Below, one piece after another: positions 1 through 6,981 of a DNA stretch of 6,981 nt. The stretch is from the IMG/VR virus record IMGVR_UViG_2648501669_000014. One strand, given 5' to 3'. Below the pieces are notes generated by a model. The model had not been told where the DNA came from. It saw only the letters and a program-made list of their open reading frames with translations, and did no database searches. Positions within the stretch are counted from its first letter, which is position 1, and each line of letters opens with the position of its first letter. The translations under genes and the position numbers were made by a program. The stretch is from a virus (Duplodnaviria; Heunggongvirae; Uroviricota; Caudoviricetes).

Positions 1-7
1 GTTTTAG

Positions 8-352
8 TTGACCACAACAATTAGCCTGATTCGAAACAAGCAATTCGATAAATCTGATGTGAAAATCGAGATGGTTTTCCTTAACCCCAACACGGGCAAG
101 GTTGAAACTACTTACCCTGTTTTCCGTGGGGTAGTCGATTCCATCGGTATTAACATCGAACATGAAGATGATGAGTGTAAAAACGAATCAGAATTTCAGC
201 TTAATAGTATCTGGGAAGTTCTAGATAAAAACGCTCGTAGTCATGCCTCCGATGGTATCCACCGATCCTATGTTGGAAACGAGAACGATCTATTCTTCTC
301 TCGTGCCGGGAAGTGGCAAAGCGAGTCGAAGTGGTTTAGCTCTAAGAAATAA
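8..352 (+). CDS. Hypothetical protein in the tail module (start uncertain: TTG 8, GTG 59 or ATG 71)
   Basis: Open frame ending TAA 350..352. All three + frames have stops within nt 1..24, so the gene starts inside the window. No clear SD before any candidate start. No HxH (JAB) or Cys cluster seen. Sits directly upstream of the K-like gene. Confidence 0.45.
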   Translation: MTTTISLIRNKQFDKSDVKIEMVFLNPNTGKVETTYPVFRGVVDSIGINIEHEDDECKNESEFQLNSIWEVLDKNARSHASDGIHRSYVGNENDLFFSRAGKWQSESKWFSSKK

Positions 353-398
353 TCCCTTCTCCCTAAGCCTAGTAAATAACAGCATGGAGGTATTCAAC

Positions 399-818
399 AT
401 GCTAAAAACTAGGCTTATCACCGATTACATCAATTCTTTAATAGGTCAGGAGTTCGTTCAAGGCGAGAATGATTGCAATCTCATTGCATGTAAGATCATC
501 GATATTCTCGCTGGTACTGACCTATATAATTCTCTTTATAAAAAATATTCAACTAAAGAAGAAGGCTTGAAAATCTGCAAAGAATTAAGCGGATATTCAA
601 ACATCCTTCAACCAATAAAGAAACATTTCAAATTAGTCACTGATGATTTACAGGACGGCGACTTACTGGTCACAGCCCACAAATTAGGAAACCGTAATTA
701 TTATTCCGTAGTTCCTCATTATTCCGGTTATGGCCTCGTTGAAGAAGATGGTATCTGGATGACCATTCCTGTTTCAGACATTGACTATGAACAAGTTTAT
801 AGATTCGGGGGTGAATAA
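399..818 (+). CDS. Tail assembly protein K-like NlpC/P60 (C40) cysteine peptidase, 139 aa
   Basis: ATG 399 lies 8 nt after GGAGG (386..390). The product has a D-C-N-L-I catalytic-Cys-like motif near the N-terminus and a later GDLLVTAH/VVPHY region consistent with the NlpC/P60 Cys...His...His order. Stop TAA 816..818 overlaps the next ATG (TAATG). Position before the J-like gene matches lambda K. No JAB/MPN motif present. Confidence 0.75.
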   Translation: MLKTRLITDYINSLIGQEFVQGENDCNLIACKIIDILAGTDLYNSLYKKYSTKEEGLKICKELSGYSNILQPIKKHFKLVTDDLQDGDLLVTAHKLGNRNYYSVVPHYSGYGLVEEDGIWMTIPVSDIDYEQVYRFGGE

Positions 819-3800
819 TGGGATTTGAAATATTGGTAGGCGCGGTGATCGCTGGTGCTTCGGCGGGGATGGCGGCAGCCGCAACATTTTCTGTTATGAC
901 CGCAGTCGCTATCGGTATGGCTGCTGGTGCAATGACCTTGATCGCTTCCACTGTAGGCGCACCAAAAACACCTAAAGTACAAAGCCCAGATAATGCGGTG
1001 ACACTAGGAACATCAAACGATCCGAAGACAGTATTACCCGTTCTTTTCGGTGTTACCCGTACTGGTACAAACTGCGTTTACAAAGCAATTTCTAAAAGAG
1101 AAAACAATAAGTTAGTGCAAATCTTCGCTGTAGCAGAGGGTGAAATCGACCACTACAAAGCACTGTTTATCGATAATAAAAATGTTCTTGTTGGTAAGAA
1201 CATGACGATCCGTGATGGCATTCTCGATAAGGGCAACATTAAAGAAGAATACCGGAAAGTGTTGGAGGTTGAGTTCCGCACGGGTAAGAATCCTAACACC
1301 GCTTTGTCACTGGCAAAACAGCATTTAGGCTCAGACTGGACCGATGCTTACAAGGGTAACGGCATTGCAACCATGTGTATTGTGTTACGTCGTGATGACA
1401 AATCTCTTGCTGCTGGTGTTGATATCCTTCAACCAAATAGCCAAGTGGCAGTCGATGTTATGGGCTTAAAGATTCGTAACCTTGAAACCAATGCTATTGA
1501 GGCTAGCACTAACGGCGTGGACCAGATTTTCCACTACCTAACAAATGAAAAATATGGCTTATCCGTACCAATTGAAAACATTAACGTTGATTCATTCCTG
1601 AAAGTACGTAAGCAAGTACGCCAGATGGATTTGCATTCAAACGGTGCATGTGATCCGAACGCCAGCTTTAAAGAGAACTTAACTAGCCTTATGCAGACTT
1701 TCGGCGGGGTGATGTTCGAATCCTTCGGAAGAATTACCCTGAAACTGGATGCTCCTGATATTGTTAAGCATACCTTCAATGAAGACAATATCATGATGGG
1801 TAAGGTATCACTGAAAACAGGTGGCACTAACGGTTATTTCAATACCATTAACGCGATGTATCAGGAACCATCAATTGACTATTCCGAGCAAATGCTACGT
1901 TATCCGGCTGATGCTGAAAACGATGCTACTATTCGTCAAGATGGTCGAATTATCGCTAAAGATATTGAATATCGTTTTGTTAAGTCTAAAGCCCAGATTG
2001 ATAAACTTGCGAGTGTAGAACGAAATAAATCTCGTATCACTCAGGTTATCAGCTTTATGACTACTGACGCATTCACTGCCGAAGTTTGGGACGTTATCAG
2101 CGTAACCTATGATGAATTGAAACTGAATAATTCACTTTGGCGTATTACCGCAATTGATCGTTCTATTGATTCTGGTATTGCTGGGATGATGACTATCACC
2201 GCTACAGAATATAATTCTCAGGTTTATACTGACCTGAACTATGCGGCAACTCCAGACAATAGACCAAGTGGTTTACCGGATTCAATGACAGTACAGAAGC
2301 CTACTAATTTCAGAATTAAGGCAACTGGCGAGACGATTTACGGTAAAAACGTTACTTTGACATGGGATGCACCGGAAGATTTTAACCGCTACGGCTTCCA
2401 GATTGATTACCGTGTAAGCGGATCACCTAACTGGATTAAGTTGGGACAGACTTCACAGCAAATTTTCAGTGTCAATGCACTGGCAAAAGATCGTTCCTAC
2501 GATTATCGAGTTTGTGCTTTCGGTATCATCGCGCGATCCGATTGGGTAGAACTGGTTAACCAGAATCCTACCGTTACCTATGAATTGCCGACTCCGGTTA
2601 TTCGAATCAAAAATCAGGGTAGCACGCCAGGAACTTTCGAAGGTAATGATCTGATTATCGAATGGGAAAACCAGCAACAATTAGATGTGATGATCAACGG
2701 TGAAACTAACAAGTTTAGTGACCTGTTTGAAGCATACATTATCAAGGTGACTAACAAGGCTGGTAAGTCTATTCAGTACCGTACCCGCGATCCTGAATCA
2801 TGGACTTATACGCTTGATATGAACCAGTTTAACGGCCTTTCGCGTCAACTGACGGTAGAAGTATCAGCTAAGGGCTATAACAACTCAGAGAGCGCCCCAG
2901 CGCGTTTAGTGGCTATCAACCCACAACATAAGCCAATGAAAGGTTTTAGTGCGCGTGGTGGCTTTAATACTGCGTTTGTTAGCTGGGCGGATGACGTAGA
3001 ACATGACTATGCAGGGTCAATCATCCAGTATGCAACCGACAACACTTTCTCAGATGCAAGGGCAGTAAGCACGAATAGTGTTAGCCATACTTCCTTTGAT
3101 ATTGCTGACGGTGATTATTATATCCGTGGTGCTCACTACGATATTTTCGGTATGGATGATGCTGTTTGGTCTGAACCGTATTTCATGCAAATGAAATCTA
3201 CCATTAGCTGGGACGATCAGGACAAAGAAGCACTGGAAGACCTGATTGGTTTACAAGATCGCTTAGATGAAACCATCGCTGATGCTATTGCTCAAGCTGG
3301 CGCTAATGCCGATGCTAAAATTGATGCAATGCATAAGCAAATCACTACCGAGACGGGTAAAACTGTTCAAGCCTCAGCCGATACCTTAAAGAGTCTGATT
3401 GCTTCTGGTGATAAGGCAAGTTCAACTAAGATTGATCAGGTTAAAGCTGAACTGAAAGGCGATATCACCAAAGAAGTTAGCGCCTCCGCTACAACCCTGA
3501 AACAAGCTATTGCTACCAGTGAAGCAGCAAGCGCAAGTAAGATTGACCAAGTTCGGGTAGAAATGGATGGCAAGATTGCTGGTGTGAATCAGGAAGCGGA
3601 CGTTAAGATCGATGCTTTGAAGGGAACCATTAACAGCAAATACAATCTAGCAGTTAATGCAGATGGTCGCGTGGCTGGCATTCACATGAGCGCAACTAAC
3701 GATCCGGCACAACCGACTAAAATCATCTTTACGGCTGATAAAATTGCTGTAGCTCCGCAGAACGGGACCGATGTTTGCCCGTTTGGTATCGAAGGTAACA

Positions 3801-4594
3801 AGGTTTATCTCGATAATGCGATGATTCGTAATGCCTCAATCGGATCAGCACAGATTACTGATGCTAGTATCACCACGGCTAAAATTGGCAATGCTGCGAT
3901 CAATTCAGCGAAAATCCAAGACGGCGCGATCACCAACGCCAAGATTGTAAATGGCGCAATTGATAACGCTAAAATCGGTAACTATATCCAGTCTTCCAAC
4001 TGGAACGGATCTACCGGATGGCATATCAATAAGAACGGTAGTGCTACGTTCATGAACGCTACCGTTAAAGGTAATATCACGGCTGATTCCGGTACTCTGA
4101 ACAACGTCACGATTAACTCTAGCTGTGTTATTAAGGGTATGCTTGAAGCTACTCAGGTTAAGGGTGATTTCGTTAAGGTGATTGGTCGTAAGTTCCCACA
4201 CCGTGATGTTAACGTTGATAATGGTTATGGTGGCTATCCGCAAGGTACAGTAACCGTTCGCGTTGAAGATGATCACAAGTTCGATCGTCAAATCGTTATT
4301 CCGGCAATTAGTTTTGGTGGATTGCGAGCGCGTGAAGGGTCGAACAATAATACCTATTACGACACCTGTCGCCTGATTGTTCGTAAGAATGGGTCAGAGT
4401 TGTATAATAGGGCGTATGGCGGTAATACTGGTCTTTACTCAGGTGTTATTGATATGCCAGCGGGTAAAGGTGCTGTGACCTTGACCTTTGAAGTGCAATC
4501 AAGCGCAATCAACAACTGGACGCCTAGCACATGGATCAGTGATTTAACTGTAATGGTAACTAAAAAAGCTACTACGGGTATTACTGTTTCTTAA
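818..4594 (+). CDS. Central tail fibre / host specificity protein, lambda gpJ family (1258 aa), with a gpI-C-terminal-like hydrophobic N-terminal module
   Basis: Uninterrupted 3777-nt ORF with GGGGG SD at 806..810. The C-terminal ~180 aa are colinear with my recollection of the lambda J C-terminus (SGTLNNVTI, DDHKFDRQIVIP, VIDMPAGKGAVTLTF, VMVTKK...GITVS versus lambda SGTLSNVTI, DDHPFDRQIVVLP, IVDMPAGRGNVILTF, VMVIKK...GISVV). Central FN3-like repeats (about 2260..3200). The first ~95 aa are a Gly/Ala-rich hydrophobic stretch ending in VLPVLFG, resembling the lambda gpI C-terminus (VLPVLYG). Confidence 0.93.
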   Translation: MGFEILVGAVIAGASAGMAAAATFSVMTAVAIGMAAGAMTLIASTVGAPKTPKVQSPDNAVTLGTSNDPKTVLPVLFGVTRTGTNCVYKAISKRENNKLVQIFAVAEGEIDHYKALFIDNKNVLVGKNMTIRDGILDKGNIKEEYRKVLEVEFRTGKNPNTALSLAKQHLGSDWTDAYKGNGIATMCIVLRRDDKSLAAGVDILQPNSQVAVDVMGLKIRNLETNAIEASTNGVDQIFHYLTNEKYGLSVPIENINVDSFLKVRKQVRQMDLHSNGACDPNASFKENLTSLMQTFGGVMFESFGRITLKLDAPDIVKHTFNEDNIMMGKVSLKTGGTNGYFNTINAMYQEPSIDYSEQMLRYPADAENDATIRQDGRIIAKDIEYRFVKSKAQIDKLASVERNKSRITQVISFMTTDAFTAEVWDVISVTYDELKLNNSLWRITAIDRSIDSGIAGMMTITATEYNSQVYTDLNYAATPDNRPSGLPDSMTVQKPTNFRIKATGETIYGKNVTLTWDAPEDFNRYGFQIDYRVSGSPNWIKLGQTSQQIFSVNALAKDRSYDYRVCAFGIIARSDWVELVNQNPTVTYELPTPVIRIKNQGSTPGTFEGNDLIIEWENQQQLDVMINGETNKFSDLFEAYIIKVTNKAGKSIQYRTRDPESWTYTLDMNQFNGLSRQLTVEVSAKGYNNSESAPARLVAINPQHKPMKGFSARGGFNTAFVSWADDVEHDYAGSIIQYATDNTFSDARAVSTNSVSHTSFDIADGDYYIRGAHYDIFGMDDAVWSEPYFMQMKSTISWDDQDKEALEDLIGLQDRLDETIADAIAQAGANADAKIDAMHKQITTETGKTVQASADTLKSLIASGDKASSTKIDQVKAELKGDITKEVSASATTLKQAIATSEAASASKIDQVRVEMDGKIAGVNQEADVKIDALKGTINSKYNLAVNADGRVAGIHMSATNDPAQPTKIIFTADKIAVAPQNGTDVCPFGIEGNKVYLDNAMIRNASIGSAQITDASITTAKIGNAAINSAKIQDGAITNAKIVNGAIDNAKIGNYIQSSNWNGSTGWHINKNGSATFMNATVKGNITADSGTLNNVTINSSCVIKGMLEATQVKGDFVKVIGRKFPHRDVNVDNGYGGYPQGTVTVRVEDDHKFDRQIVIPAISFGGLRAREGSNNNTYYDTCRLIVRKNGSELYNRAYGGNTGLYSGVIDMPAGKGAVTLTFEVQSSAINNWTPSTWISDLTVMVTKKATTGITVS
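3301..3625 (+). repeat. Imperfect periodic repeats (about 111-114 nt, 37-38 aa) encoding a KID-x-[VA] motif-bearing, Ala/Ser/Thr/Lys-rich, probably helical segment of the J-like protein
   Basis: AKIDAM (about 3313), TKIDQV (about 3428), SKIDQV (about 3539) and VKIDAL (about 3604) recur with similar flanking ...SA.TLK..IA.S context. The DNA pair actaagattgatcaggtt / agtaagattgaccaagtt is visible directly. Confidence 0.6.
3818..3982 (+). repeat. In-frame tandem 30-nt repeats (5-6 copies) encoding a 10-aa unit A-K-I-x-[ND]-[AG]-A-I-x-x inside the J-like gene
   Basis: Translation reads ...AMIRNASIGS AQITDASITT AKIGNAAINS AKIQDGAITN AKIVNGAIDN AKIGNY... with codon boundaries at 3818, 3848, 3878, 3908, 3938, 3968. 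Confidence 0.85.
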
Positions 4595-4612
4595 AAATTT
4601 AATTTTAATAAT

Positions 4613-4655
4613 TAATCCCGCTTAATTCTTTTGAGTTAGGCGGGATTATTTTTAT
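4613..4655 (+). terminator. Rho-independent terminator downstream of the J-like gene
   Basis: taatcccgc (4613..4621) pairs with gcgggatta (4640..4648); the stem extends by U-G/A-T pairs to about 13 bp with a roughly 10-nt loop. Followed by TTTTTAT (4649..4655). Lies 19 nt after the J stop. Confidence 0.8.
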
Positions 4656-4698
4656 CTAAATAATTCTGCCATGAAATTATAAAAATATCGGGGGCGTA

Positions 4699-4977
4699 AT
4701 GACTGAAATTATATATGGCGGTATCGGTGTTATCGCCTTAATTTGCGGTGGTCTTTGGAGACTTCACCGAAATCAATTAGCAACTGAAAATAGGTTATCT
4801 AAATTGGAATCCAGCGACGCATTGTTAAACCAGAAGTTTGAGACGATGCAGAATAACCATACTCAGATTGCTGAACGTGTTTACCAAATGGAACAAACAC
4901 TACACGGTATAGAGAAGAAAGTGGTTGCGATGGATGCTAAATTTGACCAAGTTCTCGACATACTCAAACAAAAATAA
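4699..4977 (+). CDS. Small membrane-anchored protein, 92 aa: N-terminal TM helix plus C-terminal predicted coiled coil; function unknown
   Basis: ATG 4699 is preceded by GGGGG (4690..4694). Residues 4-20 (IIYGGIGVIALICGGLW) are hydrophobic and followed by RLHR, which by the positive-inside rule puts the C-terminus in the cytoplasm. The remainder is heptad-like and charged (LSKLESSDALLNQKFETMQ...). Confidence 0.7.
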   Translation: MTEIIYGGIGVIALICGGLWRLHRNQLATENRLSKLESSDALLNQKFETMQNNHTQIAERVYQMEQTLHGIEKKVVAMDAKFDQVLDILKQK

Positions 4978-4995
4978 TAATAAAGGGGTGAATAT

Positions 4996-5166
4996 ATGAA
5001 GAATAAACTTAAGAAATATTTTGGTTATCTCTTGATTGTCGCCCTCACTTATAACGTAGCTATTAGACCTCTGCTAACGTCCTTTGGGCTTGAACTCCCG
5101 GCTATGACCGTGGATGAACAATTGCTAAGGACACTGGCGGGGGTCTTTTCGTTATTAGGGGGCTAA
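4996..5166 (+). CDS. Small hydrophobic protein, 56 aa (not in the supplied ORF track); function unknown
   Basis: ATG 4996 lies 7 nt after AAAGGGG (4982..4988). My translation is MKNKLKKYFGYLLIVALTYNVAIRPLLTSFGLELPAMTVDEQLLRTLAGVFSLLGG, ending TAA 5164..5166. Basic N-terminus then a hydrophobic helix; no Cys, so not a lipoprotein. Stop is 1 nt before the next ATG. Confidence 0.5.
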   Translation: MKNKLKKYFGYLLIVALTYNVAIRPLLTSFGLELPAMTVDEQLLRTLAGVFSLLGG

Positions 5167-5167
5167 C

Positions 5168-5851
5168 ATGGCAACCAGTACCAATAAACGAAACGCTCTA
5201 AGGACTAAGAAAGCGTTACGGCAATGGTCTGAAAAGGCAACCGATACATTCGAAAGGGCACTAGGGGAAGGGGCGATCTTTGCTTCCAGAGCACTCCAGA
5301 AGAAGATTAACAAGAATGTTGATAGACCTACTCGATGGACTCAACAAGCTGTAGGTAATACCAACTACAAGAACCGATCAGGGACGAGACACCAAATCTT
5401 CATCAAGGGCGCAAGGGATAAGGACAAGAAGATCGGCAGTCAGGATGACTATCTGAAACACTATTTCGATGGTGGCAAAATCAATAAGCTAGTGCCAATC
5501 GCTAACGGTAAGGTCTTAGACGCCCACGGGAACATTAAGGCCATCAAAGGCGGTAAGATGATGCGTAACATCGAAAACGGCAACTTCATCAAGGTAGAAA
5601 ACAAGGAAGGAACTTTTATCATGAAGAAGTACAAGCCTAAGAAATCCCGAACCAAACGCGCTAGGAATGGATCGGCGGTGGCAAAACGTCGCTTAGAGAA
5701 ACGCATCCAGAAACAGAGTAAGCGAATTGTTGCCGTTAAGTCGGATAAAATTTCTACTCGTTATTCGACGCTAGGATCGTGGGAAAGCAACGAGGAAATG
5801 ATGCTTAAGAACATTAATAAGCACATTAAATCGCGCATGAGATACGTTTAA
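5168..5851 (+). CDS. Highly basic Lys/Arg-rich protein, 227 aa; function unknown (candidate nucleic-acid-binding or injected protein)
   Basis: ATG 5168 is preceded by GGGGG (5157..5161). Hand count is about 36 K and 21 R against about 19 D+E, so strongly net positive. No motif I recognise. The antisense ORF 5461..5706 is rejected. Confidence 0.75.
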   Translation: MATSTNKRNALRTKKALRQWSEKATDTFERALGEGAIFASRALQKKINKNVDRPTRWTQQAVGNTNYKNRSGTRHQIFIKGARDKDKKIGSQDDYLKHYFDGGKINKLVPIANGKVLDAHGNIKAIKGGKMMRNIENGNFIKVENKEGTFIMKKYKPKKSRTKRARNGSAVAKRRLEKRIQKQSKRIVAVKSDKISTRYSTLGSWESNEEMMLKNINKHIKSRMRYV

Positions 5852-5861
5852 TCCATAAATA

Positions 5862-5883
5862 CCCTCATAGAATCTTATGGGGG
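5862..5883 (+). promoter_or_regulatory. Intergenic stem-loop that pairs with the SD of the 5890 gene (possible translational control or RNA-stability element)
   Basis: ccctcata (5862..5869) pairs with tatggggg (5876..5883), 8 bp including one U-G, loop gaatct. The right arm contains the GGGGG SD (5879..5883) 6 nt before ATG 5890. No U-tract follows, so it is not a typical terminator. Confidence 0.35.
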
Positions 5884-5889
5884 TATAAC

Positions 5890-6237
5890 ATGGCTAAAAA
5901 TATTTTCACTGAATTTCCTACTTATCCGGTCGATCAGCTTTCCGGTATTTTTATTAATGGCATTAGTCCAGAATCAATGACTTATGATTTTGAGGCGAAG
6001 AGAGTTAAACATAAACAATATAAAGAATGTATCCGCGATCATGAAAAAGGGACCGTGTTTTGTGTCGCTACATTGGCTAAACGTCCTAAGTATCGTTTTC
6101 GTGTCGGGCAAGAAGTCGATGTAGTTAATCCTTATAGTTTTAACTGTCTGGGTGATGCACGCGCGGTGTGTGTAGGCACAACTAATTACTACATTAAAGG
6201 ACTCAGATTTACCGGGTATATAATGGAATACATCTAA
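5890..6237 (+). CDS. Hypothetical protein, 115 aa; function unknown
   Basis: ATG 5890 with GGGGG SD. Last gene before the second terminator. The overlapping antisense ORF 5974..6318 lacks supporting signals. Confidence 0.65.
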   Translation: MAKNIFTEFPTYPVDQLSGIFINGISPESMTYDFEAKRVKHKQYKECIRDHEKGTVFCVATLAKRPKYRFRVGQEVDVVNPYSFNCLGDARAVCVGTTNYYIKGLRFTGYIMEYI

Positions 6238-6251
6238 CTCTAATAAATACG

Positions 6252-6280
6252 AGCGACCAATTTCGGTCGCTTTTTTATTT
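6252..6280 (+). terminator. Rho-independent terminator after the four-gene cassette
   Basis: agcgacc (6252..6258) pairs with ggtcgct (6265..6271), 7-bp GC-rich stem with a 6-nt loop, followed by TTTTTTATTT (to 6280). It abuts the GGAGG SD (6281..6285) of the next gene. Confidence 0.8.
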
Positions 6281-6289
6281 GGAGGAATC

Positions 6290-6739
6290 ATGGAGATTTT
6301 ATTTGCTGAATATATCAACTACACCGGATTTACAAGAAAAACGCCTCTTGACTATGAACCTATTGCCATTAAACGTTGTGATGAGTTGGGGTACATCTAT
6401 AACGGTTTTGTTGTGCCGTGGAAAGGGCAACATACACCCGTTTCTATAACCTGCAAGAAACATAGCACAACGCGAACAATTGCTTTCAAAACTCTTAAAA
6501 AACAAGGTGCGTGTCTTGAATGCTATAAAGAATCATTAAAACTTCCTAAGAAAAAGAATAGAGATAAGGAAGCTGTATTAGATAAAGCAAGCAATGTGCT
6601 GGAACGCAAAGATATGGTTTTAGTTGGATTGTTAGAAGATTATAAAGGATTAGACACAAAAGTTTCTTATAAGTGCAATTGCTGTGATACTGCATACGAA
6701 ACCATAATCACTAGAATCATAAACGATGATGCTGGGTAG
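6290..6739 (+). CDS. Cys-rich protein with two tandem zinc-ribbon-like modules (at least 149 aa); 3' end interrupted by IS2, likely C-terminally truncated
   Basis: ATG 6290 lies 5 nt after GGAGG. Contains C-x2-H-x16-C-x2-C (CKKH...CLEC) and a second related module (VSITC... / VSYKCNCC...). The terminal TAG (6737..6739) is the first 3 nt of the IS2 left end, so the native C-terminus is missing. Confidence 0.7.
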   Translation: MEILFAEYINYTGFTRKTPLDYEPIAIKRCDELGYIYNGFVVPWKGQHTPVSITCKKHSTTRTIAFKTLKKQGACLECYKESLKLPKKKNRDKEAVLDKASNVLERKDMVLVGLLEDYKGLDTKVSYKCNCCDTAYETIITRIINDDAG

Positions 6740-6981
6740 ACTGGCCCCCTGAATCTCCAGACAACCAGTATCACTTAAATAAGTGATAGTCTTAATACTA
6801 GTTTTTAGACTAGTCATTGGAGAACAGATGATTGATGTCTTAGGGCCGGAGAAACGCAGACGGCGTACCACACAGGAAAAGATCGCAATTGTTCAGCAGA
6901 GCTTTGAACCGGGGATGACGGTCTCCCTCGTTGCCCGGCAACATGGTGTAGCAGCCAGCCAGTTAAGTCGCTGGCCTACAC
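6737..6981 (+). mobile_element. IS2 (IS3 family) insertion sequence, left end; continues beyond the window
   Basis: Sequence from 6737 (TAGACTGGCCCCCTGAATCTCCAGACAACCAGTATCACTTAAATAAGTGATAGTC...) matches my recollection of the IS2 left terminus and leader. It is followed by the insC start. The left terminal inverted repeat is about the first 41 bp (6737..6777). Confidence 0.9.
6828..6981 (+). CDS. insC: IS2 transposase OrfA (InsC), 5' portion; 3' end outside the window
   Basis: Translation [46 protein letters not shown]... matches remembered IS2 InsC. ATG 6828 is preceded by GGAGAA. Confidence 0.9.

Follow-up and report, generated by a model that had tools for sequence, protein, structure and literature searches.

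The DNA analysed here (the window, 6,981 nucleotides) is the whole of draft contig JRQF01000015.1 (6,981 bp) from assembly GCA_000768125.1 of E. coli 77-30253-3. The strain is an isolate from a copper-fed Danish pig, and its MiSeq 2x300 draft consists of 790 contigs (PMC4276829). At this locus a tail module is followed by an endonuclease-like gene, an M15 endolysin gene, a gene for a large serine recombinase and host genes. The tail genes comprise those for tail fiber, tail tube, tape measure and tail tip (Phage_Tail_Tip and Ig_GpJ_C). The M15 endolysin was assigned to PHROG 894 (E 1.7e-45). Beyond the serine recombinase (559 aa) lie GntR/aminotransferase and ABC transporter genes. A megablast of positions 1..6760 against complete E. 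coli genomes gave 57 matches, all of them chromosomal, and no plasmid match to 1..6760 was obtained. The 59 places counted in complete genomes are likewise all chromosomal. The region is an integrated chromosomal prophage of the siphovirus type with a serine-recombinase integrase. Residence as a prophage on a chromosome or a plasmid had been expected, and the host genes beyond the serine recombinase place it on the chromosome. Window positions 1..6736 were also compared by megablast with a phage collection of 50,697 genomes and gave no match there, while IS2 alone did. Bacterial genomes seem to be the only place where this type of prophage has been recorded. In some strains it is integrated beside the GntR/aminotransferase and ABC transporter genes, in others beside ycdY/csgG (integration-site neighbourhoods in L005, which is JRGD01000226.1, 1576..4989; L002 13808..16951; L016 12328..15301).

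Positions 6290..6739 on the + strand hold the truncated 5' part of a phage endonuclease-like gene of PHROG 681, amounting to 149 of 345 codons. The intact gene was found in loci L002 and L008-L017, and the intact 345-aa protein is recorded on 218 contigs. The endolysin gene begins 2 nt past the stop of the interrupted gene. The intact protein matched PHROG 681 'endonuclease' with an E value of 8.8e-43 and carries two CapR homology domain/zinc-ribbon repeats (Pfam, 31.4 bits at a cut-off of 24.2). Only CapR scored above the Pfam cut-off; GIY-YIG, T5orf172 and MUG113 were sub-threshold and were seen mainly in the C-terminal domain of distant homologues (P0003-P0005). A PDB sequence search with the interrupted protein gave no meaningful match. 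The insertion lies between the two CxxC halves of a third zinc ribbon (YKCNCC...DDAG on one side, CRHCG on the other) and cuts the putative nuclease domain off from the N-terminal repeats.

Most related prophages are without the endonuclease-like gene, and their matches to the window stop at 6179. The description of the locus as an accessory region is apt, as the interrupted gene is missing from most of these relatives. In strain H2, a 115-aa gene directly adjoins the endolysin gene, with no endonuclease-like gene between the two. The same arrangement is seen in most related prophages (window 6180..6739; L018 9871..10581). At another place in the tail module, some relatives have a NUMOD3 homing-endonuclease-like gene (L011 3688..4461). 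Both the endonuclease-like and the NUMOD3 genes seem to be mobile nuclease genes that are gained and lost. Judged from sequence, the interrupted gene can be classed as facultative, homing-endonuclease-like and putatively dispensable.

The truncated gene runs into an IS2 element. IS2 is a 1.3-kb member of the IS3 family with a left inverted repeat (IRL) of 42 bp and a right inverted repeat (IRR) of 41 bp, and its OrfAB transposase is made by -1 frameshifting (PMC3299598). In the window, CTGGG (6732..6736) is followed directly by the IS2 left end TAGACTGGCCCCC, whose first base is 6737. The first 229 nt of the element (6737..6965, + strand), which include the IRL, the PIRL region and the start of orfA, matched the IS2 copy of E. 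coli O157:H7 PV15-279 (L003 1501..) at all 229 positions. Against the IS2 variant of strain HCP5S3_I4, 11 mismatches were counted over the same 229 nt. The IRL, taken as 42 bp according to PMC3299598, begins TAGACTGGCCCC, covers 6737..6778 on the + strand and is identical to other IS2 copies. Of the 5426 complete E. coli genomes, 4709 gave IS2-like matches to this part of the window, and the identity as IS2 is therefore not a chance resemblance. orfA begins 92 nt inside the element, and its 5' part (InsC/TnpA, HTH_Tnp_1; 46 codons) occupies 6828..6965 on the + strand. This fragment matched residues 1-46 of 121 of NCBIfam NF006928 'IS2 repressor TnpA' (E 1.5e-27) next to Pfam HTH_Tnp_1; its 96.5 bits are lower than the whole-protein cut-off of 229 bits, with only 46 of the 121 residues lying in the window.

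The sequence TAGACTGGCCCCCTGAATCTCC starts at window position 6737, and its first three bases, TAG (6737..6739), form the stop of the ORF 6290..6739. Hence the original prediction was accurate both in setting the IS2 left end at about 6737 and in stating that the element supplies the stop codon of the upstream gene. In the IS-free sequence a T also follows CTGGG, so that from the window alone the boundary is ambiguous by 1 nt. It was settled at 6737 because of the canonical IS2 termini and the contig that carries the right junction. The last positions of the window, 6966..6981 (+ strand), form a contig-end tail that, when aligned to IS2, is unlike it at 6 of 16 positions. The remaining 10 of 16 positions match, for which the chance is about 0.0016. 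The tail changes the translation from ASQLFLWRKQ to ASQLSRWPT. No exact match to 6966..6981 was found in complete E. coli genomes, and no other locus has this tail. From its sequence, it is probably a sequencing or assembly error in a low-quality read tail.

The IS2 right end is absent from the window because short-read contigs break in repeats. The expected right junction was modelled, and the C-terminal fragment of the ORF was then searched as a protein. Exact-pattern scans gave no match for the left junction in viral_contigs or genome_contigs (species-representative genomes) and none for the predicted right junction in viral_contigs or metagenome_contigs. The junction of the window was present in no complete E. 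coli genome, where every match ended at or before 6737. Two guessed chimeric proteins with a GTG start (MITD/GVWKYRGKSTGCRHCGS...) were absent from the protein collection; the real fragment begins at an internal ATG. This fragment of 175 aa, starting MDLIEHE..., is WP_032083333.1 and is encoded on contig JRGD01000226.1 (25,860 bp) of assembly GCA_000754845.1. Look-up of the C-terminal fragment (P0007) revealed no right-junction contig from JRQF01.

Contig JRGD01000226.1 starts within IS2. Positions 1..90 agree without a mismatch with the right end of the IS2 variant that is present in the window, and the 41-bp IRR, ending ...GGGGCAAATCCA, was found at this far boundary. The next five positions, 91..95, are CTGGG, and from position 96 the contig continues with TGTCGTCATTGTGGG, the continuation of the interrupted ORF. 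The sequence after CTGGG reads TGTCGTCATTG. CTGGG at 6732..6736 is thus the left copy of a 5-bp target duplication, with its second copy at JRGD01000226.1 91..95. When window 6290..6736 was joined to JRGD01000226.1 96..686, a 1038-nt ORF resulted, and its product is exactly the intact 345-aa protein. As a further comparison, IS-free relatives were inspected. The empty site, with a single CTGGG and GATGCTGGG running directly into TGTCGTCATTG, was present in 12 related loci. In ETEC4090, for example, the 345-aa ORF is intact and the site reads GATGCTGGG followed by TGTCGTCATTG. The recurrence of CTGGG after the IS2 right end had been predicted, and it was observed on a contig of a sister assembly of the same clone. 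The two checks proposed along with it gave the same answer: the ORF continues after the IRR and CTGGG on JRGD01000226.1 and restores 345 aa, and the 12 IS-free loci carry one CTGGG at the site.

The relation between the two assemblies was established from their shared sequence. An exact-protein look-up placed the truncated 149-aa protein also on contig JRGD01000204.1 (6,903 bp) of the sister assembly GCA_000754845.1. Over the 848 nt read, this contig showed no difference from the window, and a second IS junction at window 19/20 is common to both. From the identical sequence and the common 19/20 junction it follows that GCA_000768125.1 and GCA_000754845.1 represent the same clone with different contig limits. 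GCA_000754845.1 holds both IS2 junctions, the left one on JRGD01000204.1 and the right one on JRGD01000226.1. No mention of JRGD01 was found in the literature. The contigs at the IS2 reach 245, 93 and 90 nt into the element, and its interior is unassembled in both drafts. A full-length IS2 of about 1331 bp carries orfA/orfB and an A6G window for the -1 frameshift.

The start of the window also consists of IS sequence. Positions 1..19 (+ strand) belong to a second IS3-family element, distinct from IS2, and form its outer terminus (...TTGACCACAACA). The sister contig JRGD01000204.1 contains at least another 39 nt of this element. Of 5426 E. coli genomes, 3208 have the resulting 58-nt stretch, at 100% identity, at 'IS3 family transposase' ends. 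In every case the stretch stops at the base matching window 19, and the flanks beyond differ. Contig-end noise at 1..19 was ruled out by the continuation of JRGD01000204.1 into the IS3-family element. This second IS cuts a 217-aa tail gene (DUF2163/baseplate-hub-like in relatives), the 3' part of which occupies 20..352. With the IS at 1..19 and the IS2, the window contig begins and ends in an IS element. The IS3-family element of window 1..19 is itself broken, in at least two E. coli genomes, by a group II intron with an ltrA reverse transcriptase/maturase gene (L023 1..1650; L024 1..1550).

A near-identical prophage was found in strain HCP5S3_I4 (NZ_CM149869.1). Compared with this prophage, the flanks of the insertion differ at 2 positions over 6.7 kb on the upstream side and at none over 3.1 kb on the downstream side. 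HCP5S3_I4 carries a complete IS2 of exactly 1331 bp (L001 12785..14115) with a duplication of GATGG and a frameshifted transposase. Both IS2 copies thus lie in the same prophage lineage and in the same 345-codon endonuclease-like gene, and both are flanked by a 5-bp duplication. In contrast to the copy in the window, the HCP5S3_I4 copy is inserted 68 bp downstream, in the opposite orientation, and duplicated GATGG instead of CTGGG. It is also another sequence variant, with mismatches at 11 of 229 positions on the left and 6 of 90 on the right. Because site, orientation and variant differ, the HCP5S3_I4 insertion is an independent event. The HCP5S3_I4-type junction was also present in several Logan assemblies, including SRR33896409 (L006 1..28). 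That the window strain carries this insertion in addition was ruled out, since JRGD01000226.1 is unbroken from CTGGG through the GATGG site. In HCP5S3_I4 an IS1 lies within the serine recombinase gene (L001 17239..17936; compare JRGD01000226.1 3227), and 14EC007 and 14EC017 carry an IS1 inside the sequence that matches the window. IS elements accumulate in this prophage family.

Two IS2 insertions in one gene could mean that the gene is a regional hot spot for IS2 or that selection favours lysogens in which it is inactivated, a reading that we consider rather unlikely. If selection were involved, a free-standing nuclease might, for example, be costly to the host. The alternative is that two IS2 elements hit 68 bp apart by chance.

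Taken as a whole, the observations at the CTGGG site are very probably explained by a single simple IS2 insertion in the endonuclease-like gene with duplication of CTGGG, as originally predicted. The matching 5-bp repeats and the restored ORF argue for one transposition without adjacent deletion or inversion. IS2 is known to transpose via a figure-of-eight and then a minicircle; both ends at the minicircle junction attack the target, with a 5-bp spacing of the catalytic centres, and direct repeats result (PMC3299598). According to this scheme, one IS2 of about 1.33 kb would have entered at codon 149/150 of the 345-codon gene between the tail module and the endolysin gene. It would be oriented with the phage genes, with the IRL upstream and orfA on the + strand. 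Arrival by copy-out/paste-in, in which the abutted ends of the minicircle attack the target 5 bp apart (PMC3299598), would double the 5-bp target CTGGG. The TAG of the IRL would then end an N-terminal fragment that retains the two CapR/zinc-ribbon repeats, while the putative nuclease domain would be left on a separate downstream fragment, and the gene would be inactivated. Inactivation of the locus had been suggested as a possibility, and with 149 of 345 codons left the gene is indeed truncated. We infer that the two assembled ends belong to a single, intact IS2 of 1,331 bp. The right junction in JRQF01 is expected to be the same as that in the sister assembly, and the insertion may be polar on the endolysin gene.

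In its assembled parts, the element corresponds to the IS2 of E. coli (IS3 family, IS2 group; 1331 bp in ISfinder). Over its left 229 nt and its right 90 nt it does not differ from resident copies. An IRL starting with TA, an IRR ending ...GGGGCAAATCCA and a 5-bp target duplication are common to both. No difference was detected in the two assembled ends save the 6 error-like substitutions in the last 16 nt of the window. IS2 has been found in other phages and prophages, namely in Stx2a phages (nleG-like genes), in Shigella phage SfX (int region) and in phage Ge15. There, IS2 likewise interrupts accessory or non-essential prophage genes, but the phages, genes and sites differ.

A larger or rearranged structure would be the main competing explanation. 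This might be a composite of two IS2 copies, an IS2 split by another element at position 229/230, or an inversion or deletion brought about by IS2. The lack of an assembled interior in both drafts leaves room for such a structure, and the positions 6966..6981 unlike IS2 might mark a real disruption of the copy at IS2 position 229/230. Moreover, the region is IS-active, as seen from the IS at window 19/20 and from the opposite IS2 68 bp away in the near-identical prophage. The outer junctions, however, share a 5-bp direct repeat and jointly restore the ORF, and the two ends fit the same IS2 variant with 0 mismatches. In addition, the agreement of the tail with IS2 at 10 of 16 positions (P about 0.0016) is expected of read errors and not of a foreign element. 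We therefore regard a rearranged structure as very unlikely. An assembly chimera, in which a phage read was misjoined to an IS2 read and no IS2 is present at the real site, would fit a short contig with an error-like tail in a draft fragmented into 790 contigs, but it is effectively refuted: the same left junction was assembled independently with other contig limits (6903 vs 6981 bp) in GCA_000754845.1, and that assembly also contains its right-hand counterpart with the matching target duplication, which a chimera would not produce.

In summary, the simple insertion of IS2 with a target duplication in a dispensable prophage gene is routine biology that is already known, and the finding has little significance beyond annotation. 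The contig is to be annotated with an IS2-disrupted endonuclease-like pseudogene and, at its other end, with an IS-disrupted tail gene. The case also shows that IS junctions split across draft contigs can be re-paired using public assemblies. For the phage itself, the IS2-disrupted gene together with the IS-disrupted tail gene suggests a decaying prophage, and the prophage in E. coli 77-30253-3 is probably defective.
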